A DNA stretch of 64,000 nt from an uncultured Chthonomonadaceae bacterium (GTDB lineage: Bacteria > Armatimonadota > Chthonomonadetes > Chthonomonadales > Chthonomonadaceae), in contig CAWIEK010000049.1 of assembly GCA_963835065.1 (NCBI GenBank), forward strand, positions 256,001-320,000. The letters run 5' to 3'. Under the pieces are notes generated by a model. It made no database searches. It had not been told where the DNA came from and saw nothing but the letters and a program-made list of their open reading frames with translations. How positions within the stretch are numbered: position 1 is the first letter of the stretch; each line of letters begins with the position of its first letter. The position numbers and the translations under genes are program-made. Positions 3,656 to 54,720 of the stretch are shown here, in pieces.

Positions 3656-3754
3656 GCGGGCCGCGTTGCGGCCCGCAATTTTTTCAGGGGCGTACGCCCC
3701 TGAAAAAATTGCGCTTTAGGAGCATCATTCTGTCAACTATACATTATCGGACGT
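3656..3754 (-). repeat. Composite palindrome / XerC-arm-like element, copy A
   Basis: Hairpin 3656-3676, perfect 40-bp palindrome 3674-3713, TTATCGGACGT 3744-3754. Confidence 0.85.
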
Positions 3755-4027
3755 ATCTCTGAGCGATTTTAGCGTTTACTTACTCAAGAAGGAAGGCTCA
3801 AGAAGGAAAGAAGGAAAGGAGGTGTAACAAAATGCCTGTCTATATCCGCCCGCCCTGACGCTGCTGAGGTCACGACGCCTCACCCCTACAATCTGACACA
3901 ACGAGACCTCGTGCTGGAAGCGCTGTATTGCCAAGATTTCGACGATCTCTCTACATACTTTTTCTCTACATACCCTTTCCCAACACTACCAGGACTTCCG
4001 CTTGGCACAGGTCAAGTTTCGATGCTG

Positions 4028-5944
4028 TTACTGAGCGAAATTCACTTTGTAGACGTCGGCGTCTTCATTCGAGTGTACCAATTCGAGATAGGGGGGAACG
4101 GAAATTGGATCACTCAGTACGGGATGAAAGGGAAAGTTGGTATCCTGTGTCAGATGCTTTTGCGAAAAAACCACGTATTGAACGCGCATTTCTTTAAGCA
4201 GTTGGGCGCGGATTTCATCGGGAACCGCGGGGTTTGTGATACGAATCAACTTTTGGAGTTTGTCCCCATAGTCGGGTGTTTCGCCCCAGTGCCCGCAATA
4301 CACGCTGCGATGGATCAGGCCGGGCGTGAAACAGGCGAGCGTCATGTCTGCCGGAGCCAAACGGTGTTCGCCGATGCGCAGTACCCAGGGCAGGGGCTGA
4401 ATGGCGGTTCCGGCAGGCGTGTTGGTTTCTATCCAGCGAAGCGCTTCCAGTTCGCCGGGATTTAGGTAGGGACGTTGCCCGGACTGCGCGCGATTGTTCT
4501 GGTAGTTGGTGAGTTCGCGGACGACGAAACGCGCGTTTGTCAGAGCCAGCACGAGGAGGATAATGCCTGCTACAAGATTGACGCTGCGAATTTGACGGCG
4601 GAAAGCGGGATGAGTCAGGAGGCAGGCCAGCCCACAGCCTGCAAGAATGGCGATAGGGAAATGCGCTCCTTGCAGCATTTTTCTTTGAAAGGGAAATTTG
4701 GATACGGGCAGGTAAGAAACTAGAATGTTGATTACAGCCCACACAGCCAGCAGGCGCAATGCGGCTTTGCTAAGGGCAGGGGGATTTTTCGCATCAGATG
4801 AGATTGTAGCAGGTGAGGGTGTGGCGGGCGTGGCTGTTTCTTCAATGGCGTGAATTTGATTGTGTATTTTGGCTTGCTTCAGGGCTTGATAAACTCCGTA
4901 AATAGCCAGTGCCAGCGTCAAACCGTAGCCCATGATAACCCACAGTGGCAATGCGGAAGCGGTAACGACATTGGCGCGTTTGAGGAAGGTGGCTTCGGTT
5001 TGCAGTTGGTAGTAGATATAGGCGACAGCCGGGGCGGTACAAACTCCGGCGACCAACGCTTGCAGCAAGGTTCGCATTGCAGGGTTCGTTCTGATGGCCG
5101 CTTCCCCGGCAACATTGTCGGCGCTAATTTTAGCGCTTTGAAGATTTGACAGTAATGAACAGCAAAGATAGACGATCCAGACGGCTCCGACGCTGAGAAC
5201 ATCGTAGGTATGAGTCAGCCCCAGGACAAAGCCGCACAAGCCCGCGCCAACGGCATAGCGCATCCGTCCGGTTTGTTCGCCTTTGAACAGCAACAGCAGC
5301 GCGCCAATCTGGAGGGCCAGGGAAAAACAAAACAGGGGACTGAGAAGCAGCGACAGAAAGGTAATCGCTTCCGGCTGCCAGAAGTCAATGGGACCGGCGG
5401 GAGTGCCGGAAGTGGGAAACGCTTCCCAGGGCAACGGCAGCCAGCCCAATCCAGATGCAAAGCAGACGCAAAGCAATGCCCAACGCCGAACGGAGGGCTG
5501 CGAGATCGTTGTTCGCAGAAATTCCCAAACTACCATAATCAAGATGACGCCAAAGCCCAAACGAGCAAGGTGATACACGGCAAGAAGCGGCAAATGGGTA
5601 AGACGCGCTATCCAGCCAAGCGCGAGAAAGAGGGGGTTGAGCAGCGTTCCTGATTGCGCATCGGTGGTGAAAAGGTTGAGCGCGCGGAAGGAACCGCCTG
5701 CCGCCTGCCGCATCCAGGACAGATACACGCAACTGTCATCAAGATTGTAGCCGAGCCACATGAACTGCCTGCCCTGCGCCCCCATCCAGCCGATGAGATA
5801 GGGAACCAGCGTCAGCAGCATGGTAAGCAACGCTACCCACAATGCCCAACGGCGTTCCCTGCTGTCGGTGTTCAGGTGTTTGGTGTTCGGGTATTCGGGG
5901 GGAGAGGAGTTGGGCGTTTCCCTGCTTTGCGTTGTATCGGTCAC
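4028..5944 (-). CDS. Polytopic membrane protein, probable GT-C-fold glycosyltransferase
   Basis: Many TM segments; DDSCVYLSW acidic motif after TM1; H-x-YD; soluble C-terminal domain. Confidence 0.6.
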   Translation of the reverse strand: MTDTTQSRETPNSSPPEYPNTKHLNTDSRERRWALWVALLTMLLTLVPYLIGWMGAQGRQFMWLGYNLDDSCVYLSWMRQAAGGSFRALNLFTTDAQSGTLLNPLFLALGWIARLTHLPLLAVYHLARLGFGVILIMVVWEFLRTTISQPSVRRWALLCVCFASGLGWLPLPWEAFPTSGTPAGPIDFWQPEAITFLSLLLSPLFCFSLALQIGALLLLFKGEQTGRMRYAVGAGLCGFVLGLTHTYDVLSVGAVWIVYLCCSLLSNLQSAKISADNVAGEAAIRTNPAMRTLLQALVAGVCTAPAVAYIYYQLQTEATFLKRANVVTASALPLWVIMGYGLTLALAIYGVYQALKQAKIHNQIHAIEETATPATPSPATISSDAKNPPALSKAALRLLAVWAVINILVSYLPVSKFPFQRKMLQGAHFPIAILAGCGLACLLTHPAFRRQIRSVNLVAGIILLVLALTNARFVVRELTNYQNNRAQSGQRPYLNPGELEALRWIETNTPAGTAIQPLPWVLRIGEHRLAPADMTLACFTPGLIHRSVYCGHWGETPDYGDKLQKLIRITNPAVPDEIRAQLLKEMRVQYVVFSQKHLTQDTNFPFHPVLSDPISVPPYLELVHSNEDADVYKVNFAQ

Positions 5945-7083
5945 GAAGGCTGTTTCTCCTGCGCATGTTTGGAAGCGGCAACCAGCGCTCTAGATAAGGA
6001 CGCAAGGCTTTCAATTTCGGATTTGCCGCTTAAGACACCGATTTCAAGGTCGTAATGACGCTGTTCGCCGGGTTCAAGGGACTGGAGCGTACCCGCTTCG
6101 CGTTCCGCCGCGCGGCCCATGACGAGGCAGTTGGCAGGCTCCATTCCCACCACGTAAGTTCCCGCATCCATCATTTTCCACTCAATAAAGCGAGGCAGTT
6201 GGGCAGGTTGGTAGGTGCAGTAAACGCCAAATCCCGGCCCATCACTGCCACCGCTGTCGGCTATGGCATCTGCGATGGCTGCCGTTACCTGGCCGTTGGA
6301 ATTGGCGGCGAACTCGTGGAAGTACACTTGTTCCCGAAAGCCTGCCTGGGGTGGTTGAAAGCCGGCAAAATGGTCTTTGCCTTCCTCCGCATCGGCGTCG
6401 CGCGGCGTGGCGGAAAGGGTAGGGGCAATCAGGCGGGCGGCATCGTTGACAGCGGGAAAGCCGATGTTGATGTGATACAGCATCATGTGTTCGGTTCGTT
6501 TTGCGCCCATGTTTTCTACCGTATCGCGCAGGAACAGGCGCTTTTCACCGAGTCGGGCCGTTATTGTGCGCGTAAGCTGCAAGTTTGCGCCGAACACAGT
6601 GGCTTCGCGCATTTTACCGGAAATGGTGAGCAGGTAATCGTCTCCTTCCCAATGGCCGTCCCAGGCGACATTGGTAGCGGGAATGTTGCTGATACGCCCG
6701 TGCAGGCCATACTGCTGCCCCTGATCTTCGCCGTTGGCTCCGGCGTATGTCAGGCCGCAAGTGACGACAAGGCCACCATAAAATCCGCGCAGCCAGCCGC
6801 GCCCACCTTCGCCTTCGTGATCGAAATACGCGGGGTGCGTGTCCGTTGTTGCCGACCTCCAGGCAAGGGAGCGTCCATTGTAGTGGGCGGAAGAAATATC
6901 CAGGCCGCGAGAAGCCAGAACCGTAAAGTCCAACCCGCCGCCCGTAGAAACATCCAGAGCGAAAACGCCGTCTTCCAGCCCTTCCACAAGCCGGTAGGGT
7001 TTGATGCGGGCGATCTGGCTGATGTCGCCCACTCTGGCGAGAAGTTCCGAACGCGAGAAAGAGCGCCCGTAAAGTAGTGCCAT
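5941..7083 (-). CDS. DUF4432 / aldose 1-epimerase-like protein
   Basis: RGLDI, GLVVTCGL, LHGRISN, LYHINIGFP, YVVGMEPAN. Confidence 0.85.
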   Translation of the reverse strand: MALLYGRSFSRSELLARVGDISQIARIKPYRLVEGLEDGVFALDVSTGGGLDFTVLASRGLDISSAHYNGRSLAWRSATTDTHPAYFDHEGEGGRGWLRGFYGGLVVTCGLTYAGANGEDQGQQYGLHGRISNIPATNVAWDGHWEGDDYLLTISGKMREATVFGANLQLTRTITARLGEKRLFLRDTVENMGAKRTEHMMLYHINIGFPAVNDAARLIAPTLSATPRDADAEEGKDHFAGFQPPQAGFREQVYFHEFAANSNGQVTAAIADAIADSGGSDGPGFGVYCTYQPAQLPRFIEWKMMDAGTYVVGMEPANCLVMGRAAEREAGTLQSLEPGEQRHYDLEIGVLSGKSEIESLASLSRALVAASKHAQEKQPS

Positions 7084-7102
7084 GAAAACTCCTGTTTAAG
7101 CA

Positions 7103-7132
7103 GTTGATAGTTGATAGTTCGTAGTTGATAGA
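7103..7132. repeat. (AGTTGAT)n heptamer array
   Basis: agttgatagttgatagttcgtagttgatag; the same string occurs near 62263. Confidence 0.8.
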
Positions 7133-7477
7133 GATTCGATTTCTGCAAACTATCAGCGCCTCGCTGCTTCGTAAAAATGGTTTGAGTATTATGGATGTTG
7201 GGCATACGCTGGTTATATTCCTTCCTGTGTTCTTGGAAGCAGCCTCCAATTGTGTCACATAAGCATGGGAAAAGCGTTGGGTGAGGAGGACGAAAGAATG
7301 TATTCACGCGGGAATGACCGTACAAGCAGTGATTAGGGAACCGGGCGGGGCGGTATTTCGTCCTATTGGCGATGTATTCCGCCAACGGTTAGCAGTTACA
7401 AAGCGGCAAGCACAGGACACAATGCCCTGTGAGAGTAGGTCTGCTTGTTGGACAGGCAGGTTTGCGGAGAGAGAACC

Positions 7478-8866
7478 ATGAAACACAATCGAATAAACAA
7501 GTATGCCATCGGATTAGCAGCGCTGTGTTCGCTGATGTCGTGGGGCAGTATCATGGGCGCGTCGGCACAGGTACGGGCGGCGGCACAAACGCGAACCATC
7601 GCGCTGGAAGCGGGTTCCGTTATTCCCGTCAAACTGGATGACGCGCTGAGTTCCAAGAATTCGCGCAAGGGCGATACGTTCACGGCGACCATTCGCAACG
7701 ATACCGATACGGATTATTATCGGCTGCCTGCGGGAACGCGGGTGGAAGGCGTTGTGCGGGACGTGCGTTCGCAGAAAGACAAAGATCCCGGTGTGCTGGA
7801 CCTGGACTTTCGGCGGCTGCGGTTCCCGGATGGCAAGTCGTATGCCATTGAAGGATCACTTATTGGATTGGACAACAAGAGCGTGGAAAAGCGCTCGGAT
7901 GGCCGCCTGGTTGCCAAGCCGGGACATTCGACGGATCGCCTGACCTACGTGGGCTACGGCGCGGGAGCCGGCTTGATTGTGGGATTACTGACGAAGCATG
8001 GCATAGAAGATACAGTGCTTGGCGGCGGGCTGGGGTATTTGTTCGGTTCGCTTCAAAAGGGCGGGTCGCAGCCTCGTGATGTATCGCTGAAGCAGGGAAC
8101 GGAACTTGGCGTTCGCATGGATAAGGCGGTCTCCCTGGCGAGCTACAGCAGTCAAGACGATTTCAACAATCGTAATCGCGCTGATGGCAGCCGTAACCCG
8201 AACATCAATAGCCAAAACCAGAATGACGATGTTCGTAATCATCGCGCAGACGGCAATGGCAGCGACAGCAATTCGCGTTATCGCCGGGACGATCAGGGCA
8301 ATACTACCGACACCCGGAACAATCGCCCGGATGATCGCGGCAATCGTGGCAATCAGGATGGCCGGGACATCGCTGCGGATCGGGATCGGGGCAACAGTTC
8401 GGACATCGGCATGATGATCGGGGATCGGAATGTGACTTTCGCGTCCACTGCGCGTCCGTTCCTTTCGAAGGGTGTGGTTATGCTTCCGGTGCGCCCCGTG
8501 CTGGATGCCGCGCATATCCCGTTCACCTATGACGCGCCAAGTCAGCAGGTGCGGGCGACGGGGGATGGCGGCAGAGTCCGCTTGGCGCTCAACAGTTCCA
8601 TTGCCGTTGTGGATGGAAACCGGCGCGTCAATCTGGGTGCGCCCGCGCAGCGATTGAACGGAACGCTGTACGTTCCCATGCGCTTCTTCGGCCTGGTAAC
8701 GGGCAACGAAGCCACTTACGATGCGGGCAGCCGTACGGTGGTGATGAACCCCCGCGACAGCGGCGATAACAACCGGCGCAGCCGCGACGACAATGGCCGC
8801 AACCGGGATGACAACCGCCCCAATCGGGACGATAATGGGCGCAGCCGCGATAATGGCGGAAACTAA
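7478..8866 (+). CDS. Secreted protein: beta-rich N-domain with glycine zipper, D/N/R-rich linker, copper-amine-oxidase N-terminal-like (stalk) domain
   Basis: Signal peptide; VKLDDALSSK..GDTFTA; GAGAGLIVG..LGGGLG; MLPVRP..NGTLYVPMRF; DDNGRNR repeats. Confidence 0.7.
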   Translation: MKHNRINKYAIGLAALCSLMSWGSIMGASAQVRAAAQTRTIALEAGSVIPVKLDDALSSKNSRKGDTFTATIRNDTDTDYYRLPAGTRVEGVVRDVRSQKDKDPGVLDLDFRRLRFPDGKSYAIEGSLIGLDNKSVEKRSDGRLVAKPGHSTDRLTYVGYGAGAGLIVGLLTKHGIEDTVLGGGLGYLFGSLQKGGSQPRDVSLKQGTELGVRMDKAVSLASYSSQDDFNNRNRADGSRNPNINSQNQNDDVRNHRADGNGSDSNSRYRRDDQGNTTDTRNNRPDDRGNRGNQDGRDIAADRDRGNSSDIGMMIGDRNVTFASTARPFLSKGVVMLPVRPVLDAAHIPFTYDAPSQQVRATGDGGRVRLALNSSIAVVDGNRRVNLGAPAQRLNGTLYVPMRFFGLVTGNEATYDAGSRTVVMNPRDSGDNNRRSRDDNGRNRDDNRPNRDDNGRSRDNGGN

Positions 8867-8867
8867 A

Positions 8868-8925
8868 TAGTTGATAGTTGATAGTTGATAGTTTGTAGTT
8901 GATAGGGAGGCAGGAACTTCGCGCT
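8868..8925. repeat. (AGTTGAT)n array plus GGGAGGCAGGAAC tail
   Basis: agttgatagggaggcaggaac is shared with the copy at 21662-21725. Confidence 0.8.
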
Positions 8926-8971
8926 TTCACCTCTTCCTTGCTTACTACACTGATGCCAAAGATGCAGGATG

Positions 8972-9005
8972 AGAAGCCCCAACGCAAATTGTGTTTGGGC
9001 TTCTT
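8972..9005 (+). terminator. Probable intrinsic terminator
   Basis: agaagccc...gggcttct stem after the 7478-8866 gene. Confidence 0.5.
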
Positions 9006-9017
9006 GTCGTTTGCCTC

Positions 9018-9046
9018 TTGCAATCCTGTTAAGTATGGTGTATAAT
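9018..9046 (+). promoter_or_regulatory. Sigma70-type promoter for tRNA-Ala
   Basis: TTGCAA-N17-TATAAT. Confidence 0.75.
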
Positions 9047-9097
9047 AGCAGGTGTCGTTCCCAAGACGATAACCATTCTTATGCGAAATAGTGATGC

Positions 9098-9170
9098 GGG
9101 GCTGTAGCTCAGTTGGGAGAGCGCTTCAATGGCATTGAAGAGGTCAGGAGTTCGAGCCTCCTCTGCTCCA
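9098..9170 (+). tRNA. tRNA-Ala(GGC); CCA not encoded
   Basis: Cloverleaf GGGGCTG..CTTCA-ATGGCAT-TGAAG..TTCGAGC..; G3:U70 and A73. Confidence 0.97.
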
Positions 9171-9173
9171 TCC

Positions 9174-9216
9174 GCGAAAGGCGCGACGCTCAGACGTCGC
9201 GCCTTTCGCTTTTTTC
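9174..9216 (+). terminator. Rho-independent terminator after tRNA
   Basis: gcgaaaggcgcgacg-ctcaga-cgtcgcgcctttcgc followed by a T run. Confidence 0.85.
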
Positions 9217-9329
9217 CGTGATAATTCCACAACCACAAGGAAACTATGCCCGCATTGGTGAATAGTGGGAAGGCAGTTGGTTCAACCCTGCTGACATCAG
9301 AGTGACGTGAGGAAAGGAATCGCATCCCG

Positions 9330-10469
9330 ATGGAACTCAATCTTGATAAAATGATTCTCGACGCATTTGTGGAATCTTCCTCCGACCTGTTTCTCAAATC
9401 GGACAGCCTGCCGTCCATCCGCAAGCACGGGCGGATTGCGCGGCTGGAGGGCTATGAGCAGCTTACGCTGGCGCAGGTGAAGGAACTGGTGTACAGTAAA
9501 ATGACGCCGCACCAGCAGGCGGTTTTCGAGCAGCACCATGAAATGGACCTTGCGTTCTCCGTAGGCAAAGAGCTGCGTATCCGCATGAACATTTACATGC
9601 AGCGCGGCGGCCCTGCGACAGTCTGCCGCTTGATACCCACCAACATCCGGTCCCTGGATGAACTCGGCGTCCCGCCCAAAGTGAAAGATTTTACCACGCA
9701 CCGCAACGGGCTTGTTCTCATAACGGGTCCGACGGGATCGGGCAAGACCACCACGCTTGCCGCCATGATTGACCTGATCAATCAGCATCGCAAAGTCAAC
9801 ATCATTACGCTGGAAGACCCCATCGAATTTGTGCATGTGGACAAGGAAGCGATTGTCAGCCAGCGCGAAGTCGGCATTGACACGGATAACTTCAATGTCG
9901 CCCTGCGCCATGTGCTGCGCCAAGCGCCGGACATTATTCTCATCGGAGAAATGCGCGACCTGGAAACCATGAACATCGCGCTGCAGGCGGCGGAAACCGG
10001 CCACCTTGTTTTTGCCACGGTTCACACGGCGAGCGCGGCGGAAACGCTGGATCGTATTTCCAATATGTACGCGCCGCATGAGCGTCCGATGCTATGGCTG
10101 CGCATGTCGGTCACGCTGCGCGGCGTTTTGTCACAGAAACTGCTGCCCCGAGCCGATGGCAAGGGCCGCGTGGCGGCTATCGAAGTGATGGACGTGACGC
10201 CTACCATTCAGAAGATGCTGGAAGATGGCAAATCCGATGAAATCTATTCGGCCATTCGGCAGGCGGGCACGGAAGCGTACTGGGGCATGCAGACCATGAA
10301 CCAATGCCTGCTGCGCTATTACAAAGCGGGCATCATTTCGGAACAGGACGCGCTTTCCAATGCGGGGCAGCCGACGGAATTGAAGCAGTTGATTCGTATG
10401 GCGTATCAACGCGGCGAAGTGGCCGCGCCGGTCGGTTCGGCACAGAGCAACGCCGCCGCACCACGATAG
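9330..10469 (+). CDS. PilT/PilU-family type IV pilus ATPase
   Basis: GPTGSGKTT, TLEDPIE, LRQAPDIILIGEMRD, AETGHLVFATVH, GMQT; lacks the AIRNLIRE motif. Confidence 0.92.
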   Translation: MELNLDKMILDAFVESSSDLFLKSDSLPSIRKHGRIARLEGYEQLTLAQVKELVYSKMTPHQQAVFEQHHEMDLAFSVGKELRIRMNIYMQRGGPATVCRLIPTNIRSLDELGVPPKVKDFTTHRNGLVLITGPTGSGKTTTLAAMIDLINQHRKVNIITLEDPIEFVHVDKEAIVSQREVGIDTDNFNVALRHVLRQAPDIILIGEMRDLETMNIALQAAETGHLVFATVHTASAAETLDRISNMYAPHERPMLWLRMSVTLRGVLSQKLLPRADGKGRVAAIEVMDVTPTIQKMLEDGKSDEIYSAIRQAGTEAYWGMQTMNQCLLRYYKAGIISEQDALSNAGQPTELKQLIRMAYQRGEVAAPVGSAQSNAAAPR

Positions 10470-10602
10470 TACACTGCGGATAACGAGCGGCCACATCAAA
10501 GGAGCAGCCGAGTCGTGAACCATTCGGCTGATAAGCCCCCGGCCAACCGGTCTGCGACCGGGATACCCGGACTCAGATAGCCTGTTTGCCTCCCTTTCAT
10601 GT

Positions 10603-10652
10603 AAGAAGACCTCTTGTATTGGCAATGTCCAATGTGAGAGGTCTTCTTGTTG
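10603..10652 (+). terminator. Long hairpin, probable terminator
   Basis: aagaagacctc..attgg..ccaat..gaggtcttctt. Confidence 0.6.
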
Positions 10653-10781
10653 GTTGTTACCGGGGTATTTTTGGCTTCTATCCGGCAGACTGAGTGAGAA
10701 GGAAGGCGAGACGGGGTACAATAACATCATTACATCAACACAATGTCACTCTCGAAACGTTGAGTATAGGATAATCAGAAC

Positions 10782-11567
10782 ATGGCGGGAATTATGGAGG
10801 GCCGGCGGGTGCTGGTCACGGGTGTACGGAACAAGTGGTCTATCGCCTGGCACACGGCGCTATCGCTGCACCGCGAAGGGGCGGAGTTGGCGTTTTCGGT
10901 GTTTGGGGAACGGGAAGCCGGCGGCGTGACGAAACTGCTGCGCGATGCCGGGTTTGAGTCGCCGATTATTTCCTGCGATGCGTCCGATGAGGCGCAGGTG
11001 GACGCGCTGTTTACGCAGTTGCATACGCCCTTTGAGGGAAAATTGGACGGCCTGCTGCACGGCATCGCGTTTTCCAATAAGGATGATTTGAGCGGGGAGT
11101 ATGTCGCCACTTCCAAAGCCGGGTTTACGCTGGCGCATGAAAACAGCGCGTATACGCTGGTGGCGCTGGCGCGTGGGGCGCGTCCGATGATGCAGGCGGC
11201 GGGCGGGGGCAGCGTGGTCACGCTTACGTACCTGGGGTCTGAGCGCGTGGTTCCGAACTACAACATTATGGGCGTTGCCAAAGCGTCACTGGAAGCGAGC
11301 GTTCGTTACCTGGCTTCGGATTTGGGGCCGGACAACATTCGCGTGAACGCTATCTCGGCGGGGCCAATCAAGACGCTGGCGGCAAGCGCGATTGCCAATT
11401 TTGACACGATGCTCAAACAGTTTGCGGAACGCGCCCCGCTGCGCCGGGCGGTGGACGCGGATGAAGTAGGGGATGCGGTGATGTTCCTGTTGAGTCGGCT
11501 GGCGCGCGGAATTACGGGCGAAGTGATTTACGTGGACGGCGGATACAACATCATGGGAATGCTTTAA
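10782..11567 (+). CDS. fabI: Enoyl-ACP reductase
   Basis: SIAW, YNIMGVAKASLE, NAISAGPIKT, ITGEVIYVDGG. Confidence 0.95.
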   Translation: MAGIMEGRRVLVTGVRNKWSIAWHTALSLHREGAELAFSVFGEREAGGVTKLLRDAGFESPIISCDASDEAQVDALFTQLHTPFEGKLDGLLHGIAFSNKDDLSGEYVATSKAGFTLAHENSAYTLVALARGARPMMQAAGGGSVVTLTYLGSERVVPNYNIMGVAKASLEASVRYLASDLGPDNIRVNAISAGPIKTLAASAIANFDTMLKQFAERAPLRRAVDADEVGDAVMFLLSRLARGITGEVIYVDGGYNIMGML

Positions 11568-11600
11568 ATTCGGTGTTCGGTATTCGGTAATCGGTAGTTG
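11568..11600. repeat. (TTCGGTR)n heptamer array
   Basis: attcggtgttcggtattcggtaatcggtag; related arrays at 5867-5900, 35022-35115 and 59168-59200. Confidence 0.7.
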
Positions 11601-11653
11601 GATTCACAGGTATTTTCTTCCAATTTGGGGAAGCCTGTAGATGGAGAACTCGA

Positions 11654-12769
11654 GTGACACAAACGGGGATGATTCCGTTTCCGCGTATTTTGCTGGGGCC
11701 GGGACCGAGCAGCGTGACGCCGCGTGTGCTGGAAGCGCTGGCTCGCGCTCCTATCGGGTATCTGGACCCGGAACTGTTTACATTACTGGAGGCTATGCGC
11801 GGAAATCTGCGGACGGTGTTTGGAACGAAAAACGATTTCACCATTCCTCTGACGGGCACGGGCATGGCAGGCATGGAGTGCTGCCTTGCCAATCTGCTGG
11901 AACCGGGAGATACGGTTGTCATCGGAATTGCAGGCTTCTTTGGCGGGCGCATGGCGGAAATCAGCCGACGATTGGGCGCTCAGGTGATTGAAGTTCAGGC
12001 GGAGTGGGGGCGTGTTCTGGAACCTGAGCAGTTTGCCGCCGCGCTTAAATCGCTGACGAACGTAAAATTGGTCGGCTGCGTACATGCGGAGACTTCGACG
12101 GGCGTACATCAGCCGCTGGAAGCGATTGTCGCTCTGGCGCATCAGCATAGCGCGTTGTTTTTGGCGGACGCGGTAACATCTTTGGGCGGACTTCCCGTAG
12201 ACATAGATAACGTGGGCATAGACGTTTGTTATTCCGGTACGCAGAAGTGCATGGGAGCGCCGCCCGGACTATCGCCACTGACGGTTTCGGAGCGCGCGCT
12301 GGAAACGGCGTGGAACCGGAAAACACCGCTTGCCGATTGGTTCTTCGATTGGAAGCTGTTGCGCGATTATTATGATGGCGCTCATGCGTATCATCATACG
12401 GTTCCCGTAAACTTGTACTATGCGCTTGATGCCGCGCTTGAAGAGATGATGGAAGAGGGTCTGGAAGCGCGGTTTGCGCGGCATCGGGCAGTCAGCGCGC
12501 AGTTGATGTCGGGCCTTTCCAATTTGGGGATTGAGCCGTTCGCGCAGGAAGGGCATCGGCTGCCGACGCTGAACGCCGTAGCAATTCCGAGTGGCGTGAG
12601 TGATGAAGCGGCGGTACGCAAGCGCCTGCTGATGGAATACGGACTGGAAATCGGCGGCGGGTTGGGGGCGTTGAAGGGCAAAATCTGGCGTATCGGCACT
12701 ATGGGCGCTTCGGCGACGCATCGCAATGTGACCCTGCTGCTGGCGGCATTGAAAGAAGTCCTGGATTGA
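11654..12769 (+). CDS. Alanine--glyoxylate / serine--pyruvate aminotransferase (class V)
   Basis: LLGPGPS, HAETSTG, DAVTSLGG, SGTQKC, YHHT, WRIGTMG. Confidence 0.92.
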   Translation: MTQTGMIPFPRILLGPGPSSVTPRVLEALARAPIGYLDPELFTLLEAMRGNLRTVFGTKNDFTIPLTGTGMAGMECCLANLLEPGDTVVIGIAGFFGGRMAEISRRLGAQVIEVQAEWGRVLEPEQFAAALKSLTNVKLVGCVHAETSTGVHQPLEAIVALAHQHSALFLADAVTSLGGLPVDIDNVGIDVCYSGTQKCMGAPPGLSPLTVSERALETAWNRKTPLADWFFDWKLLRDYYDGAHAYHHTVPVNLYYALDAALEEMMEEGLEARFARHRAVSAQLMSGLSNLGIEPFAQEGHRLPTLNAVAIPSGVSDEAAVRKRLLMEYGLEIGGGLGALKGKIWRIGTMGASATHRNVTLLLAALKEVLD

Positions 12770-12819
12770 ACGTGCTATTGTGATCAAGCGCATTTACGGA
12801 AGACGCGAGGATTTATCTG

Positions 12820-13812
12820 ATGGGGCTTTTTCCAAAAGAGATGGAAGTTGGCAATGTGAGTTTGGGATCGGCTCCCAAGCGGATGCAGTGGACTCGTGAG
12901 CGGGGAACGCGCCGTCTGCTGGCGGGGCTTGCTATAATCACTGCCGCCTGGTTTGCGTATTCGCAGGTACAGGATCATATCCTGCTGCAAGCGCATTGGG
13001 AACGGCTGGCTCCCAATACACAGGGATTGACGCTTGTCGGTACGCTGAATTCACGGGACAGTTATGATCGCAACCTGATTAAGATTATTACGGCCAACAA
13101 ATCTTCGCGGGTGGTGCTGACGGAATATGGATGGAAGACGATATTCGACGTTCGGAACGGACCGTTGTTTGATGACCAGGCTTCCGGCGCGATTCAGGCG
13201 GCCTTGAAGCAGGATGATGTGGTGGGCTATGCCATGCTGACGCCCTTCCTGCGCGGCGCGCTTGAAAAACAGATGGGGGACGCAAGCGCCTTTAAAGCCG
13301 TGCGCGAGGAACTTCCGATCACGATCCCCAAGCATACCAAAGACGGGCATGAGGAGCAAACTACGCTCGGAAATCTGCTGCGCCGCTATGAGGGGCAGGG
13401 AGCGCAGGAGGGGGCGGAGCCAAGCGATGTGCCGGAATCAGGCAGCGGCAGCGGCAGGGAAAAAGAAATCAATGTTACCATTCCGGCGGAGACTCTGGTG
13501 TTGGCCTGCCCGGTAGTGCTGACGGACAAACAGATTGCCGGCGCGTGGCTGGAAGAGGTACAGGGCAATCTGCTGACGCCAACCTCGTATACAATCCATC
13601 TGGATTTATCGCCGGAAGGCAGATCGCGCTTTTTCCAATGGTCGCATGAGCATGTGAATGAGAACATCGCTTTTGTGCTGAATGGACAAGTGGTTGCCGC
13701 GCCCCGCGTGACGCAAACCCTGAACGTAAGCGACTTTTCGGTCAACAACGTGCAGGATAAAAAGGCGGCTCAATCGGTGGTGGATTATCTTTCGCAGCAC
13801 AGCAGCAAGTAG
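12820..13812 (+). CDS. Membrane-anchored protein with a C-terminal SecD P1-head-like domain
   Basis: One N-terminal TM; LSPEGRSRF..IAFVLNGQVVAAPRV. Confidence 0.6.
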   Translation: MGLFPKEMEVGNVSLGSAPKRMQWTRERGTRRLLAGLAIITAAWFAYSQVQDHILLQAHWERLAPNTQGLTLVGTLNSRDSYDRNLIKIITANKSSRVVLTEYGWKTIFDVRNGPLFDDQASGAIQAALKQDDVVGYAMLTPFLRGALEKQMGDASAFKAVREELPITIPKHTKDGHEEQTTLGNLLRRYEGQGAQEGAEPSDVPESGSGSGREKEINVTIPAETLVLACPVVLTDKQIAGAWLEEVQGNLLTPTSYTIHLDLSPEGRSRFFQWSHEHVNENIAFVLNGQVVAAPRVTQTLNVSDFSVNNVQDKKAAQSVVDYLSQHSSK

Positions 13813-13903
13813 AAGGTGCATGTAGCCTATTGGGCATAGTCGCCTATAGGCAAGTTCCCCAATAGGTGAACTTGCATAGGAAGTCAGAATAGAGTGGAAA
13901 CAG

Positions 13904-14006
13904 CGGAGCCGCGTCGCGGCTCCGAATTTTTTGTGCGGGCGTACGCCCGCACAAAAAATTCGTTTGATGGTAAGTCACCTTCCTGTACCACTACATTATC
14001 GGACGT
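13904..14006 (-). repeat. Composite palindrome / XerC-arm-like element, copy B
   Basis: Hairpin 13904-13924, perfect 40-bp palindrome 13923-13962, TTATCGGACGT 13996-14006. Confidence 0.85.
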
Positions 14007-14009
14007 TTC

Positions 14010-14530
14010 AAAGAGTTTCAAAGGGTTCCATTAGTACATTAAGGGTTCCCCGCACGAAAGGGATAGGTTCACGAGAAGGGATAGGTTCACGATGTTGTAG
14101 AATTTCTTTGACCGCCCGAAAAGCCATCAGTTGCCGTCGCTGATTCCCCATTTAAACTCTCGATATTGTATCTGCGATACGATCTTTGAAGTTAGCAGTA
14201 CCTTGTCAGTGCGAGGAGTAGGCTTCCTGAAGCCACTCAACAACCGTTTCAATCGTCTAAATGTTCGCACCTCCGTTTTGCATCTCAACGTGTCTGGTAA
14301 AACACTCCAGTTTGAAGGATCAAACTCTATCTCCTTCAGTTTCAAATAGGTCATGTGTCCAGTTAAAGTAAACGCTATTTGGATGTCAGGCTGGTACCCT
14401 TAGAGCATCTGCTTGTTGGTATGATGGAATTGCGGTGGATACGCAGAAGCGATCTCCTGAGCAACAAATGTCAGTCGGGATATCTGATTTTCCGAGAAAG
14501 GTTGCATCAAGGGGCAATGTCTCCAATCTG
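14010..14530. other. AT-rich segment with only short ORF fragments
   Basis: Visibly lower GC; 75-aa ORF 14127-14354(-); AAGGGATAGGTTCACGA tandem duplicate near 14057-14091. Confidence 0.5.
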
Positions 14531-14531
14531 C

Positions 14532-15401
14532 TTACAAGGACTCGATTTGGTTTATCTGTAGTGATATTAACGTGCCCCCGGCGATCAATAACAGTTCCCG
14601 AATCTGTGGCAGCAGGGCTTGCATGTTTGCCGTCACGGCTTGATGATCTACGGGGTCGGATGTCAGGCCGGCTCCATAGTTCGTGACGATGCCGAGCGCG
14701 GCGTATTCCAGACCGGCTTCACGGGCAAATACCGCTTCCGGCAGGCCGGTCATACCTACCACGTCACCGCCCCATTGCGCGAACAAACGCACTTCGGCGG
14801 GACTCTCAAAGCGGGGGCCATCGCAGCACACATACGTGCCTTGTGGCCGGAGCGTAATACCGCTCTGATGGGCCACTTCCATGACGACCCTGCGCAGGAG
14901 GGGACTGTAGGGCGTGGAAAAATCAACGTGGGACCAGGCTTCATCGGGCGCGAAGTAGGTAAGTGGGCGTGTCCGGGTAAAATCTATAAAATCGTCGAGC
15001 AGCACGAGCGAACCGGGCGCAATATCCATACGCAGCGATCCGACCGCGTTTGTGGCAAATACATAGCGGACGCCCAGTTGCTTTAACGCGGCGATGTTGG
15101 CGCGATAATTGATCTGATGGGGAGCCAATCCATGTGTAACCCCGTGCCGCGCCAGAAAGTAGAGTTTGTACGGCTCGACGTAATTATTGGATACGCTTAA
15201 AACGCGCGCCGAACCATGCGGGGTTTGCAGTTCCATCGGTTCCGCATAAATTTCGGGCGGCATCTCCTCGAAACCCGTCCCGCCAATGATAGCAATATGT
15301 CCCTCCGCGGCATCCGGGTCAATGGCCTGCGCGGACTTTGCTGTTTCGGCTGGTTGATATGTATGATTTTGCATGGAAGTTGTACTGCTGTTATTGTTCA
15401 T
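14532..15401 (-). CDS. Methylthioadenosine/methylthioinosine phosphorylase (MTAP family)
   Basis: IIGGTG, RHG..H..APHQINYRANI, AVGSL, GPRFESPAE, VGMTGLPE. Confidence 0.92.
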   Translation of the reverse strand: MNNNSSTTSMQNHTYQPAETAKSAQAIDPDAAEGHIAIIGGTGFEEMPPEIYAEPMELQTPHGSARVLSVSNNYVEPYKLYFLARHGVTHGLAPHQINYRANIAALKQLGVRYVFATNAVGSLRMDIAPGSLVLLDDFIDFTRTRPLTYFAPDEAWSHVDFSTPYSPLLRRVVMEVAHQSGITLRPQGTYVCCDGPRFESPAEVRLFAQWGGDVVGMTGLPEAVFAREAGLEYAALGIVTNYGAGLTSDPVDHQAVTANMQALLPQIRELLLIAGGTLISLQINQIESL

Positions 15402-15527
15402 ATTCGTCTCACAATCAATGATGGAAAATAGTTTACCTTATTAGAAAAATCCGGTTGTTCGGCTTTCGGCCAATCGTCTTACGGACGAAAGAACTTCTGG
15501 CATATTTACGTCGCAGTGTAGTAGGTC

Positions 15528-15556
15528 TTGACACACAGGGATGGGTTCGGTATACT
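15528..15556 (+). promoter_or_regulatory. Sigma70 promoter
   Basis: TTGACA-N17-TATACT. Confidence 0.8.
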
Positions 15557-15606
15557 CCCCACTAACTATTCCTGTCAGGAAAATAATTCGCAAGAAAATA
15601 ATCGAA

Positions 15607-16452
15607 ATGACGCAAGCAAGTTCTACACCCGCATCAACAGCCAGACGTGACATCAAGCAGGCAGACGGACGCAGTTTTGATCGCATCGCCGTCCGCACCC
15701 ATAAGGTTCTGTTTGGCGAAGATTTGGGCGAAGTGATTGCGCGATATGCGCAGCCACACCTCACGCCCAATTCCATAATTTGCTTATCGGAAAAGTTCGT
15801 CACGATCTGCCAGAACAACGTGCGCCATATCAGCGACGTTCACGATACCTGGCTGGCGCGTTTGATTGTTAAGTATGTTACCAAACATCGCGATGATATT
15901 GGATACTCGCACCCAAAAAAAATGCAGGTCGCCATTGAACTTGCCGGCTATCCGCGCATAATCGCCGCGGTGATCTTAGGGGGAGCAAGCCGCCTGCTGC
16001 TGAAAAGGCGCGGGGATTTCTACCGCATTGCCGGCAACCGCATTTCTGAAATAGACGGCTTTAATCCGGCGGCTATGAAACCTTTCGATGAGTATGCGAT
16101 GCTTCCGCCCCGGCGTCCGAATGAAACGTGCGATGAACTGGCGGCTCGTTTCCAGTGCGGCTGCTACATCATTGACGGCAACAACATCAATGTGGAAGTG
16201 ATCGGCATGAGCCGCAACATGGCCGATTTGAATGTCAATCTCGCAACCGCCCGCCTTCTGATGCTCGACAACCCTATGGGGCAAAACGACGAACTGACAC
16301 CTATTTTCGTGCTGCGTGAAATAAAGATGGAGACGCCTGCTTCCGTAGCCATTAACTCTGCCGACAGCAAGCCGGAGGCCATTGACGCCCAAATCAACGC
16401 TAAAAGCGCTGATGCCACAGAAGCTAAGCGCACAAGCGGCGCTAAGTCGTAA
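15607..16452 (+). CDS. F420-0:gamma-glutamyl ligase (CofE)-like protein
   Basis: VRTH..GEDL, SEKFVTICQ, RGDFYRIAG, IDG, IIDGN, DNPMGQNDELTP. Confidence 0.7.
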   Translation: MTQASSTPASTARRDIKQADGRSFDRIAVRTHKVLFGEDLGEVIARYAQPHLTPNSIICLSEKFVTICQNNVRHISDVHDTWLARLIVKYVTKHRDDIGYSHPKKMQVAIELAGYPRIIAAVILGGASRLLLKRRGDFYRIAGNRISEIDGFNPAAMKPFDEYAMLPPRRPNETCDELAARFQCGCYIIDGNNINVEVIGMSRNMADLNVNLATARLLMLDNPMGQNDELTPIFVLREIKMETPASVAINSADSKPEAIDAQINAKSADATEAKRTSGAKS

Positions 16453-31324: not shown

Positions 31325-31506
31325 ACGTCCGATAATACAAGGTATGGAAGAAAACAACTTAAGATTTCCCAACTTCACCTCAATTTTGTCATTGCTACCT
31401 ATAGCCGTTTGGACATTGTATGGGCAGCAACAGTAATTCTTTTCATGCAAGTACAAAATTAGAACCTGGGCGCAGCATACAATATGCTGCGCCCAGGTTC
31501 TAATTT
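31325..31506 (+). repeat. Variant copy D of the XerC-arm-like / palindrome element
   Basis: ACGTCCGATAA 31325-31335; 24-bp-arm hairpin 31456-31506; longer spacer and no short hairpin. Confidence 0.55.
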
Positions 31507-32175: not shown

Positions 32176-32694
32176 TCATTCGTTTTGCGTAGATTCCAGT
32201 ACGGATTCTGCCACATAAATGGGCGCTCGATACCGCAGCGCCATTGCGATAGCGTCACTTGGCCGCGCGTCAATGTCAATCACTTCTTCGCCGCGAGCGA
32301 GCGTGATTTTCGCGTAGAATGTTTCCTGAAGCAGATCGTCTATGGTCACGCGCTCTACAGACGCTCCCAGGCGGTCCAGCATCGTTCGCATCAGATCGTG
32401 CGTAAAGGGTCTGTCCGGGCGGTCTCCCTCAATCGCCATCGATATAGCCACGGCAACATCCCGCATAACGAAAATCTTGAACTCACGCCCATGATTGTCG
32501 CGCATCAATACAAACGTCGTATTGTGCAGGGGATTGCCCGTATCCACCTCATATACATTGACGACCTTAACTTCTTTTTCGTTCAAAGCGCGTGAGGACC
32601 TTGTCTCAGGCTGCCCGCCGGGCCCTTCGGACGCGCTGAAACTCTCGTCTTCCGGTCGCCAATCCCCAAACAAATCCCTAAAATCGTTGCCCAC
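32176..32694 (-). CDS. Bifunctional nuclease family protein (DUF151)
   Basis: RPFTHDL, FYAKI, DARPSDAIAMALR..PIYV. Confidence 0.93.
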   Translation of the reverse strand: MGNDFRDLFGDWRPEDESFSASEGPGGQPETRSSRALNEKEVKVVNVYEVDTGNPLHNTTFVLMRDNHGREFKIFVMRDVAVAISMAIEGDRPDRPFTHDLMRTMLDRLGASVERVTIDDLLQETFYAKITLARGEEVIDIDARPSDAIAMALRYRAPIYVAESVLESTQNE

Positions 32695-47349: not shown

Positions 47350-47352
47350 ACG

Positions 47353-48437: not shown

Positions 48438-48749
48438 ATGAATAAGCCACAGTTGAACCTACAAGACATATTTCTGAATCAGGTGCGCAAGGAAAACATC
48501 GGCGTCACCATTTATCTGATTGGCGGCGTCCAGTTGCGCGGCATGGTGCGCGGCTTCGATGCCTTTACCATTCTGCTCGACTCCGTTGGCAAGCCTACCC
48601 AACTTGTTTACAAACATGCCGTCACCTCCATTGTGCCCTCGCGCCCCGTCTCCAACTTCTATCAGGAGTCGCACCGCGACACCGTAGGCGAACGCACCGA
48701 ACGCGAACCCCGCGAAGCCCGTACCCCCGTCACTCCCACGCAGGAGTAG
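48438..48749 (+). CDS. hfq: RNA chaperone Hfq
   Basis: [34 protein letters not shown]. Confidence 0.95.
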
Positions 48750-48832
48750 CAGAAGTCCGTCTTCGTCGTGTGTATAGTCGGCTATCTGCATCACTCCCAC
48801 GCAGGAGCAACAGAAGCAGCAGGAGTTTCAAG

Positions 48833-49687: not shown

Positions 49688-49876
49688 ATTTTCGATTTTC
49701 GATTGCCGATTTCCGATTTCTGCTTATTCAAATGGCTATACTCCCTGCCTGAATAATGCAGCCAACCTGTTAGCGTGGAGCATCCAATGACAGAATCTAA
49801 CTCGCCTTCCGCCACGCATCCCCAATCGGCAATCGAAAATCAGCAATCGAAAATCGAAAATCGGCAATCGGCAATT
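49686..49876. repeat. Fold-back element (TTTTCGA)n...(TCGAAAA/TCGGCAA)n; right arm lies inside the next CDS
   Basis: gattttcgattttcgattgccgatttccgattt vs aatcggcaatcgaaaatcagcaatcgaaaatcgaaaatcggcaatcggcaat. Confidence 0.85.
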
Positions 49877-51586: not shown

Positions 51587-51596
51587 ACTGGAGACA

Positions 51597-52628
51597 ATGA
51601 CCGGTATGAGTATTCAGCCTGTAATGGTAACAACCTGGAAGTTTGGAGTGGCAGCGGGGCGCGTGGGCTGGCAGAAATTGGCAAATGGGGCTTCCGCTCT
51701 TGACGCCATCGAAGCGGCAGCCAACGTTACGGAACTCGATCCTGCCGTGAACTCTGTGGGATACGGCGGGCGCCCCAATGCTGAGGGCGTTGTTGAACTG
51801 GATGCTGTCATTATGGACGGCATAAGCCATTCGGCGGGAGCCGTTGCCGGCTTAACAGGTATCCGAACGCCTATTTCCGTCGCGCGCCGGGTGATGGAAC
51901 AAACGCCCCATGTGATGCTCGTCGGCGAGAATGCAAAAAGATTTGCCGTTCAGCAGGGGTTCGTAGAGGAGGAACTCCTTACGCCTGACAGCCTGCAAAA
52001 ATGGCGCGAATGGCAGCGCAGCGCCAATCACGCCGATGTCGCTCATTTCGAGGTCGGCCCGAAAACAACGTCACCGTATGGAGAACCGCATGGCAGGCCC
52101 AACCCCAACGCAGCCGCAGCCGATCTGACGCCGGACAATCACGATACCATCGGCCTGTGCGCTCTGGACGCGCGTGGAAATCTGGCGGGCGGCTGCACAA
52201 CCAGCGGGATGGCGTGGAAAGTGCCCGGACGTGTCGGAGATTCCCCTATCATCGGCAGCGGGCTGTACGTGGATAACGAAGTAGGCTGCGCGGCAGGCAC
52301 GGGGCACGGCGACGAAATGATGAAAGCCTGCGTCACCTACCGCGTCGTGATGCTGATGGAACAGGGCCGCACCGCGCAGGAAGCTTGTGAGGAAACCCTG
52401 CGCTACCTCCTCCGCAAGCGCGATCCCGGCCAGTACGACAACTATGGCGCAGCCCTCATCGCCATCCGCAAGGACGGGCAAATCGGCAGCGCGGCTACGC
52501 GCTCCGGCTTCGCCGCCCCCGACAGATTATGGCAATGGGTCATAACCGACAGCCCCGAACCCACCTTAGAGGAAGGCCCCTACATCTCACGCAAAGCAAT
52601 AATTCCTACCCTGACCCCTGACTCCTGA
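51597..52628 (+). CDS. Glycosylasparaginase / asparaginase-2 (Ntn hydrolase)
   Basis: SVGYGG.P, HDTIG, TTSG..KVPGRVGDSPIIGSG, TGHGD. Confidence 0.92.
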   Translation: MTGMSIQPVMVTTWKFGVAAGRVGWQKLANGASALDAIEAAANVTELDPAVNSVGYGGRPNAEGVVELDAVIMDGISHSAGAVAGLTGIRTPISVARRVMEQTPHVMLVGENAKRFAVQQGFVEEELLTPDSLQKWREWQRSANHADVAHFEVGPKTTSPYGEPHGRPNPNAAAADLTPDNHDTIGLCALDARGNLAGGCTTSGMAWKVPGRVGDSPIIGSGLYVDNEVGCAAGTGHGDEMMKACVTYRVVMLMEQGRTAQEACEETLRYLLRKRDPGQYDNYGAALIAIRKDGQIGSAATRSGFAAPDRLWQWVITDSPEPTLEEGPYISRKAIIPTLTPDS

Positions 52629-52648
52629 CCACTGGCTCCTACTTAAAC

Positions 52649-54547
52649 ATGAAGCACGTCATTATTGGAACCGCCGGGCACGTAGATCACGGCAAAACCA
52701 CGCTGATTCAAGCGCTGACGGGAACCAATCCCGACCGGCTCAAAGAGGAGCAGGAGCGCGGCATGACCATTGACATTGGTTTCGCCTCGTTGCGCCTGCC
52801 GGACGGCACGATTGCGGGCATTGTGGACGTTCCCGGCCACGAACGGTTCCTCAAAAACATGCTGGCGGGCGCAAGCGGCGTGGACGTGGTACTGCTCGTG
52901 ATTGCCGCAGATGAAGGCGTAATGCCGCAGACTATCGAGCATCTGGACGTGCTGCGCCTGCTGGACGTGAAAAACGGCGTCGTCGCGCTGACTAAAATGG
53001 ACATGGCCGAAAAGGAATGGACGGATGTTGTCGAGGAAGATGTGCGCGAACATCTCAAAGACACCTTTCTGGCGCAGGCCCCGATCATTCGCGTTTCCGC
53101 CAAAACCGGCAAGGGACTGGAAGCCTTGAAAAAAGCGCTGATGGCCGCTGTCAGCCGCGCCGAAGCCCGCAATGCCGGCCTCCCCTTCCGCCTGCCCATT
53201 GACCGCGTGTTTACGCGCCCCGGTTTTGGAACGGTTGTTACCGGGACACTGGCCGCAGGTACAATTCGGACCGGGGATGCCGTTGAAATCGTGCCGCAGC
53301 GACTGAGCGCCCGTGTGCGTGGCCTGCAAGTGCATGGGCAAAAGGTCACGGAAGCGGAAGCGGGATCGCGGGTCGCCATCAATCTTGCGGGCGTGGACAA
53401 TGCCGACCTGGAACGAGGCGCGCAGGTCACGCCACCCCATGCCATTGCCCCTACCACCACATTCGACGCCACGCTGCGCCTGCTCCCCAATGTCGAAAAA
53501 CTGCTGGAGGATCGAGCGCGCGTCCGTCTGCACATGGGAACGGTGGAAGTGTTGGGACGTATCCGCATACTCGATACCAAATCCGAACTTGCGCCCGGAG
53601 AACGCGCTTTTGTGCAATTTCGGGGCGAAACGGAATTTGTCGCGGCGCGTGGAGATCGTTTCGTCGTTCGTTCCTACTCCCCGATGACGGTCATTGGCGG
53701 CGGCGTAGTGCTTGACGCGCACCCCACCCGGCATCGCAAGGCGGAAGCGGATACGTTGACCGCGCTGGAAGCCAAAGAGCGAGGTACGCCCGAAGACCTT
53801 ATAGACACATTACTGCTCAAATCCCCTACAGGCATTTTGCGCTCCGAAATCCCCCCGGCGACGGGACTGACGCCAGGAGAGACAGCCGCAGCTATAGAAG
53901 TTCTGTTAGCCGCAGACAAAGCCGTCCTGCTTCCGCATGAGCGTATCATCAACACCCTTGTACTTGTCGGCCTGACTCAGCGCGCGGAAGAAGCGGTTGA
54001 GCGGTTCCACAACCAGTTTCCGCTGCGTCCGGGAATGCCGCGCGAGGAATTACGCGCCGCTCTTGGACGAAACGTAGACAGCAAAGCCTTTGGTTCGCTG
54101 CTGTCGCGCTGGCACAAAGAGGATCGGTTTACTTCCGAAGGCGCATTTGTGCATCGGGCGGATTTTACCGTTCAGTTGACCGACAAACAGCAGCAGATGC
54201 TGAAGCGCATCGAAGAGGTTTATAAAGCCTGGGGTATTGCCGTTCCTGCCATTGAAGATGTTGCTAAAGAACTAAAAACGCCTGTGGACGCGATCACCTC
54301 CCTGCTGAAAGTCGGACAGGAACAAAAGCGCTTTGAAAAAATCGAAGATGGCATCTATTACCACGTAGATACCATTGCCGGTCTTCAGCAACTGTTACGC
54401 GCTTATCTCGCAGAACACGACAGCATCAGCGTAGGCGAATTCAGAGATTTAACAAGTTCCAACCGGCGCTACTCCCTGATGGCCCTGGAGTTTATGGACA
54501 CAATCCACTTCACCCGGCGGCAAGGCGATCAGCGAACCTTATACTGA
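52649..54547 (+). CDS. selB: Selenocysteine-specific elongation factor
   Basis: [30 protein letters not shown]-terminal winged-helix FRDL...RRY...LEFMD...TRR.GD.R. Confidence 0.93.
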
Positions 54548-54620
54548 TTACTACTGAACAAGTAAAGTATTGAAGTATTGACCTGTTGAATAGTTGACTG
54601 CTTGATTTTGCCTGCTTAAA

Positions 54621-54720
54621 ACGTCCGATAATATTAAGCCATCCAGACGGCTTAATATCAAACGATTTTTAGGCGCGACGTACGTCGCGCCTAAAAATCG
54701 GGGCCGCGTCGCGGCCCCGA
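54621..54720 (+). repeat. Composite palindrome / XerC-arm-like element, copy C
   Basis: ACGTCCGATAA 54621-54631, perfect 38-bp palindrome 54663-54700, hairpin 54698-54720. Confidence 0.85.

Follow-up and report, generated by a model that had tools for sequence, protein, structure and literature searches.

Background

Why does a perfect palindrome joined to one arm of a Xer recombination site recur between the genes of a bacterial chromosome? The question is raised by a stretch of 64,000 nucleotides (the window) from an uncultured bacterium of the Chthonomonadaceae (Armatimonadota), corresponding to C49:256001-320000 (contig CAWIEK010000049.1) of the genome under study (GCA_963835065.1, here G000; 8.0 Mb, 92% complete). 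A first-pass annotation of this DNA described three full copies of the element (A, B and C) and a variant, and proposed a non-autonomous element or recombination-site family, possibly serving also as a bidirectional terminator. We find that the supposed variant is the chromosome's dif, and that the copies are, with little doubt, host terminus sites derived from the XerC arm of dif.

Known fork traps and terminus organisers are lacking in most bacteria, and the systems based on Tus, RTP, MatP and XDS each occur in narrow lineages only. Elements were collected by scans with regular expressions and by palindrome searches.

Results

The chromosomal dif

The site at 31325-31352, previously read as part of a variant copy reaching to 31506, is the true dif of the chromosome and not a decayed copy of the element, since it lies where the GC skew flips and FtsK-orienting polar sequences (KOPS) converge, and since the single canonical dif of relatives shares its 11-mer, ACGTCCGATAA. 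Along C49 the cumulative GC skew reaches its maximum close to 287.5 kb (~31.3-31.5 kb in the window; fitted centre 285.3 kb), and KOPS point toward dif at 59:10, ranking first of 56 octamer patterns with like composition. The 12-mer is found in 36 of 41 relatives; dif in the other families of the order is typically single and has the canonical form ACGTCCGATAA-N6-TTATGT (the 12-mer, then N5-TTATGT). The right arm usually begins GTATG in the Chthonomonadaceae, and 31325-31352 is the only exact XerC-arm plus GTATG site in G000. The relative G001 carries dif opposite dnaA, dividing its 6.15-Mb chromosome 48/52. The remainder of the supposed variant is a separate hairpin with a 24-bp stem (Table 1).

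The dif of G001 (L042; G001:C2:1218386) itself bears the palindrome and GC hairpin, and its nuclease-domain neighbour has changed sides relative to G000, which suggests a dif/element chimera. Four-fold GC skew in G000 runs at 0.13-0.42 over most of ~150 kb to the left and 65 kb to the right of dif (C49:130-350 kb); on five other large contigs it is close to zero, and around dnaA it is weak. This pattern suggests either that initiation is dispersed or that the chromosome is scrambled while its terminus stays locked in polarity. Viral loci L128, L141, L133, L157 and others also contain a complete canonical dif whose XerC arm is the same, and these contigs could possibly be Xer-exploiting phages or host fragments of other taxa.

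Table 1. Features of the window, with the exact 11-mers of the whole genome in the last row (window positions unless a contig is given)
Feature	Position	Strand	Remark
proS	1994..3448	+	recurrent outer flank gene
GC hairpin, copy A	3656..3676	+	with T6 at 3679-3684 intrinsic-terminator-like for proS, transcribed toward dif
Perfect 40-bp palindrome, copy A	3674..3713	.	order: T-run, G-rich arm, CGTACG centre, C-rich arm, A-run
XerC-arm half-site ACGTCCGATAA, copy A	3744..3754	-	points away from dif
SecDF-head-domain gene	12820..13812	+	recurrent outer flank gene
GC hairpin, copy B	13904..13924	+	terminator-like for SecDF-head-domain gene
Perfect 40-bp palindrome, copy B	13923..13962	.	
XerC-arm half-site, copy B	13996..14006	-	marks the left breakpoint where the dif-containing block is inverted in comparison with G002
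Nucleoside phosphorylase (pnp)	14532..15401	-	recurrent inner flank gene
Chromosomal dif	31325..31352	+	XerC arm ACGTCCGATAA, central TACAAG, family-type XerD arm GTATGGAAGAA
Separate hairpin near dif, 24-bp stem	31456..31506	.	not of the element type
Bifunctional-nuclease-domain gene	32176..32694	-	adjoins dif here and in G001, G002, G020 and G021
selB	52649..54547	+	recurrent inner flank gene
XerC-arm half-site, copy C	54621..54631	+	follows selB; marks the right breakpoint of the same inversion
Perfect 38-bp palindrome, copy C	54663..54700	.	
GC hairpin, copy C	54698..54720	-	T5 follows on the minus strand; terminator geometry for a gene pointing toward dif
Cu_amine_oxidN1-domain gene	54785..55291	-	recurrent outer flank gene
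Genome-wide exact 11-mers	C49 259754, 270006, 287325, 310621, 334038; C16 130480, 132825	-, -, +, +, +; -, +	

A mirror-polar array of XerC half-sites

A re-scan recovered copies A, B and C as first described, with the same coordinates, spacers, perfect palindromes and overlapping hairpins: each joins ACGTCCGATAA, through a spacer of 30, 33 or 31 nt, to a perfect palindrome of 40, 40 or 38 bp and an overlapping GC hairpin. The 11-mer had been taken for an XerC-type dif arm with a degenerate XerD side, an assignment borne out by the dif sites of relatives; compared with the genome's own dif, it is identical to the XerC arm. The window holds four exact 11-mers, and allowing one mismatch also yields four matches, against 0.71 expected, a number reached by none of 100 shuffles. 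The whole genome holds only seven, five on C49 (one of them dif) and two on C16, and all six copies other than dif carry a perfect palindrome on the outer side, away from the centre. Scanned across the genome, palindromes of the T-run/stem/A-run type (5 of 6 matches) and the GC hairpin (all matches) are confined to element sites.

The extra half-sites read away from dif in 28 of 28 cases, on eight dif-bearing contigs (G000, G001, G002, G017, G019, G020, G021 and G023); because the genomes are related, these counts are not independent. The same outward orientation is seen near dif in two near-complete genomes that are free of the palindrome, in 8/8 half-sites of G013 and 3/3 of G005. Among ten gene ends, with 420 nt examined, three carry a half-site without palindrome (after pnp in G003 and G013, after selB in G005); one more match, with two mismatches, looks like chance, and G005 has a further half-site ~500 nt beyond pnp. 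The polar XerC array thus predates the palindrome, because palindrome-free relatives have half-sites after the same genes, pnp and selB, and the occurrence of such arrays in other members of the family argues that the array is ancestral host architecture rather than a mobile element. The element is real and lineage-specific, and apparently an undescribed variant of auxiliary Xer terminus sites: no XerC half-site arrays like these were found described for Armatimonadota in the literature searched, subscription papers lying outside that search.

The palindrome and its distribution

We collected 60 distinct elements with 59 distinct arms and perfect palindromes of 30-48 bp. Under a definition independent of structure, 44 of 45 cores are perfect, with one mismatch in 480 bp, and a metagenome pattern that did not require the palindrome nevertheless returned it in 26 of 30 loci; G017:C288 is a second imperfect copy. 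The centres are CTTAAG (18), GCTAGC (18), CTATAG (7), CGTACG (6), GCATGC (4) and others (7), 58 of the 60 have TA or AT at the very middle, and the distance from arm to palindrome centre varies from 39 to 65 nt. With centres, arms and distance so varied, it is structure that is kept, not sequence or phasing, in agreement with the initial view that structure is conserved over sequence. Perfect palindromes with a loop of zero are common in G000 (21, of which six are elements), so a general correction of palindromes may partly maintain the symmetry. Contigs from four sequencing runs over window positions 2000-16000 do not span the palindromes. Short inverted-repeat sequences at 3523-3597 and 3851-3940 have very high contig depth in the four runs and are probably multi-copy repeats resembling repetitive extragenic palindromes (REP), unrelated to the element.

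Within the order, the pattern matched 18 of 68 genomes; the match in G005 is a chance one, leaving 17 genomes in ten genera of one family, the Chthonomonadaceae, of which 25 further genomes are negative. Palindrome-bearing copies occur in 0 of 26 genomes of the other families, and presence is all-or-none by genus; the set holds one genome per species, which bounds comparison at strain level. A loose scan of all genomes gave at least 120 matches to the 11-mer, 12 of which, among the matches listed, are of element type while the rest are mostly chance; those with a visible title, again among the matches listed, belong to Chthonomonadales or Chthonomonadaceae. The palindrome accompanied 0 of 125 viral 11-mer matches (119 loci being chance matches or plain dif sites), and the stricter element pattern was found in no viral contig. 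An Rfam scan of the window at gathering score gave no match to the element, only to a tRNA.

A likely second replicon

A 326-kb contig of G001 (C3) has a 10-nt end overlap and carries parA/parB and a tyrosine recombinase at 217-225 kb. It is homologous to contig C16 of G000 (42 of 107 best hits), and the two are likely a separate circular second replicon. Each bears one opposed pair of palindrome-bearing copies at the switch of skew and KOPS (KOPS 52:18 and 15:2), and no dif-like site was found near the skew switch of either. The partition locus (G001:C3:217-225 kb; G000:C16:77-83 kb) comprises a fusion of a helix-turn-helix domain to ParA, a ParB and a conserved tyrosine recombinase, 75% identical between the two genomes.

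Breakpoints of terminus inversions

The copies are inversion breakpoints of the gene blocks of the terminus, so the rearrangement at these sites anticipated by the first-pass annotation does occur. G002 differs from G000 by a single inversion of the dif-containing block, with ends at copies B and C, and G001 shows six new gene adjacencies, four of which carry an element or dif while the other two break beside one in G000. The genes next to the elements fall into an inner group (pnp, selB, fabI and two that we take, from sequence likeness, to be mutL and a kdsC-like gene) and an outer group (proS, the Cu_amine_oxidN1-domain gene, the SecDF-like gene, gene 69 and pilT); the labels pnp, fabI and pilT are shorthand from Pfam matches. 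They keep these roles across elements, with one gene seen in both, and form 20 pairings, a pattern that inversions between opposed copies across dif would give. Copies also resemble one another more closely inside a genome than across genomes, a difference reached by 0 of 2000 permutations in a test confounded by kinship.

Of the 54 junctions that could be classified, 45 have an outer gene directed at the element. The claim that the element occurs only between convergent genes holds inside the window but not generally: by automatic calls of open reading frames at the 60 elements, 26 junctions are convergent, 19 are co-directional inward, 5 are divergent, 4 are co-directional outward and 6 are unknown, and the fifth chromosomal copy, C49:334038, lies outside the window and upstream of mutL. 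Core housekeeping genes populate the terminus (window 1994-54547: proS, rho, guaA, miaA, dapF, gcvT/H and selB), and several of them stay there across genera.

Host recombination and segregation proteins

XerC (on C24) and XerD (C49:579 kb) owe their assignment to their best NCBIfam matches (TIGR02224 and TIGR02225), which fall just under the equivalog cut-offs. The recognition helix of XerC is nearly invariant and that of XerD variable, matching the invariant left arm and drifting right arm of dif, and the cognate enzyme of the elements is most likely host XerC, encoded on another contig than the window. In a quick tree of XerC, the genomes with elements cluster (3 changes against 8.5 when shuffled), with many branches unresolved. 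No element-specific gene was found in the neighbourhoods of xerC and xerD. XerD of this family (L034:1459-2442; G000:C49:579 kb) has a Lys/Arg-rich, AT-hook-like insertion, often RGR or GRP, with the catalytic residues intact.

FtsK gamma was detected in 39 and the SMC hinge in 38 of 41 genomes. Homologues of GyrA/ParC number one per genome in the 41 relatives, split matches aside, and these relatives apparently lack topoisomerase IV. The GyrA/ParC match is split within a frame of 1000-1340 aa in several genomes including G000, probably by inteins. None of the four scanned tyrosine recombinases, out of six, passed the integron-integrase cut-off. MatP and RTP were found in 0 of 5 genomes each, and Tus in 0 of 1 (G000).

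Discussion

The array is established by the identity of its 11-mer with the XerC arm of dif, its location at skew switches, its strict polarity, its presence on a likely second replicon without dif, its vertical inheritance and its coincidence with breakpoints. As to function, we tentatively take the copies to be XDS-like Xer-loading gates that would stop or unload SMC while letting FtsK pass to dif, a prediction that may well be right but falls short of being probable. It was chosen because XerD, which unloads SMC at dif-like XDS sites (PMC11840125, PMC11894783), is the only precedent for a terminus with additional Xer sites. The extra half-sites, placed in mirror on both arms within ~50 kb of dif, would insulate the terminus; host XerC, perhaps with an XerD of relaxed specificity, would bind them, and SMC arriving from the origin side would be stopped or unloaded as at Bacillus XDS. 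In Escherichia coli a half-site blocks FtsK ~5-fold more at its outer than at its inner face (PMC2800217), and the orientation of the copies would show the permissive, inner face to inbound FtsK, which would account for the polarity provided that the sites serve some other purpose. The perfect palindrome flanked by A-tracts, gained on the origin side in about ten genera, may be a structure-forming aid to stalling; A-tracts are reported to correlate with SMC stalling near archaeal dif (PMC11840125). The GC hairpin could shut out inbound transcription, and occasional recombination or conversion between opposed copies might invert blocks across dif and homogenise the copies. The gate reading also suits the parAB replicon, which has one site per arm and the palindrome on the side from which SMC would arrive.

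The resemblance to Bacillus subtilis XDS (PMC11840125, PMC11894783) extends to extra dif-like Xer sites in the terminus and to SMC in the lineage. The copies described here differ, as far as those accounts go, in keeping the XerC arm and losing the XerD arm, in strict outward polarity, in the added palindrome and terminator, in being breakpoint hot spots and in their presence on a second replicon. Confinement to the terminus is shared with matS (PMC11894783), but MatP was found in none of five genomes. Large inverted repeats of the terminus (PMC5345009) are of a different scale.

Several points weigh against an SMC gate. Bacillus XDS, as described, relies on XerD, whereas the copies keep the XerC arm, and XerC of E. 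coli, acting by itself, shows weak binding and fails to halt FtsK (PMC2800217). Unloading of SMC alone needs no perfect palindromes and leaves the breakpoint hot spots unexplained. The dif of G005 does not lie opposite dnaA (25/75), and contig G017:C139 (L072), which has no dif, carries three palindrome-free half-sites in mixed orientation (-, +, -). Finally, smc was not found in G000 (92% complete); ftsK is frameshifted in the same assembly (C71:36.7-38.3 kb), and both are possibly errors or gaps of the assembly.

Among the alternatives, one would make the copies a third, independently evolved terminus barrier built of host parts, in which XerC half-sites provide polarity, the cruciform-prone palindrome on every replicon is where forks or SMC are blocked or fuse, and the sites form a polarity-preserving shufflon of housekeeping blocks. 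We regard this as a minority possibility.

Somewhat more doubtful is that the copies are auxiliary recombination sites on which XerC and a relaxed XerD assemble and are activated by FtsK, providing extra dimer resolution or unlinking without topoisomerase IV; XerCD would then produce the inversions directly, and on the second replicon dif would be replaced by the opposed pair. In agreement with this, the arm is followed by a conserved TRTW and the XerD arm begins with a weak RTWG. Further points in favour are the G000/G002 breakpoints, both at copies, the 20 inner-outer pairings, the likeness of copies within genomes, the palindrome-bearing dif of G001, the convergence of KOPS on the replicon pair and the single GyrA/ParC homologue. 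Copies on the same side in G021, however, share the central hexamer, which argues against efficient recombination, since this would delete essential genes. The XerD-side sequence is moreover mostly unconstrained, the varying distance of arm and palindrome centre does not suit such sites, the second replicon has its own tyrosine recombinase, and a single type IIA topoisomerase is found order-wide, including families without arrays. The pdif and secondary dif modules of Acinetobacter (PMC10132070) are comparable in that several dif-like sites delimit shuffled blocks, but those modules, as described, have both arms and accessory cargo, whereas here one arm flanks housekeeping blocks of 10-25 kb and all sites face away from dif.

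A fork trap made of host parts is unlikely. Bound XerC, its outer face toward dif, and hairpin-forming DNA would arrest forks leaving the terminus, and stalled forks would cause the inversions. The nested, opposed clusters around dif and the minimal pair on the second replicon match the geometry of described traps (PMC10331603, PMC3317982), and Tus-Ter and RTP-Ter likewise have nested opposed polar sites flanking dif and a two-site version on an extrachromosomal replicon (PMC10331603). Four-fold GC skew in G000 is 0.05-0.18 inside the innermost pair against ~0.2-0.4 in the flanking bins, and the failure to detect Tus (G000), RTP or MatP (five genomes each) leaves room for such a system, while also setting it apart from Tus-Ter and RTP-Ter, as does a site composed of half a dif and a palindrome. 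A model with traps at the copies beat a free-fusion model of skew in only one of four genomes (dlnL +6.1 for G000, with 1 of 25 random pairs as good, -5.3 for G001, -4.1 for G002 and 0.0 for G023). In addition, the palindrome sits beyond the predicted blocking face, and block shuffling alone can make steps in skew.

The earlier proposal of a non-autonomous mobile element, or a remnant of an integrative mobile element exploiting Xer (IMEX), using XerC or an HUH enzyme, is largely refuted and now very improbable. Homogenisation of copies within genomes would suit it, and likeness on the XerC side only, with a divergent XerD side, recalls the attachment sites of IMEXs (CTX, VGJ, TLC and the GGI; PMC5357621), among which CTX uses folded DNA. 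Set against the IMEX sites described there, the copies have no phage or cargo and no tandem attL/attR, are inherited vertically, and their hairpin does not rebuild a dif-like duplex. IS1202-family targeting of dif was ruled out, as IS1202 elements have terminal inverted repeats and a transposase and enter at the outer side of the XerC arm (PMC10132070). REP elements mobilised by REP-associated tyrosine transposases (RAYT) were likewise ruled out, with six copies that all lie at skew switches; Y1 transposase genes are present in 5 of 5 genomes checked, but none adjoins a known copy. The viral scans, the all-or-none presence by genus, the half-sites that genera without the palindrome have at these same gene ends, and the mirror rather than tandem orientation of the copies around housekeeping genes all tell against mobility.

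Protelomerase target sites are perfect palindromes. The copies share this feature, their symmetry being perfect with variable sequence (44 of 45 cores) and the centre nearly always TA or AT, and could in principle be hairpin-telomere resolution sites, cut and resealed by a protelomerase-like or junction-resolving enzyme. They differ in coupling a variable sequence to a XerC arm, and the ResT/TelK catalytic domain (PF16684) was found in 0 of 41 genomes, a profile that a divergent enzyme could escape. Cuts at several sites would free origin-less pieces carrying rho and guaA, assemblies continue through the palindromes into different genes, and loop-zero palindromes of other types are common in G000, all of which makes this reading less credible still. 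Least credible is that the elements do no more than terminate transcription or form RNA 3'-end hairpins between genes: the GC hairpin with its T-run is terminator-like and the outer gene mostly points to it, but the XerC arm, the confinement to the terminus and the polarity would be left unexplained, and the elements match nothing in Rfam. In the long palindrome a T-run comes before the stem and an A-run after it, opposite to the order in a bidirectional terminator, which removes that part of the original proposal; only the small GC hairpin with its T-run (T6 in copy A) has terminator geometry, for genes pointing toward dif.

Whichever function applies, the elements explain where terminus inversions break in the Chthonomonadaceae and define a precise, sequence-based terminus architecture in an almost unstudied phylum, for which a lineage dif consensus is now supplied. 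The use of XerC rather than XerD, the strict polarity and the natural versions with and without palindrome make the roles of Xer half-sites directly testable, including SMC unloading, FtsK passage, fork arrest and unlinking without topoisomerase IV.

A neighbour of xerC

A protein of 143 aa, encoded upstream of xerC (L405:2636-3067), adjoins it in 20 of 30 loci, all from Chthonomonadaceae. It has no Pfam match and corresponds in the atlas only to unnamed Armatimonadota clusters, and we list it as a candidate Xer accessory factor.

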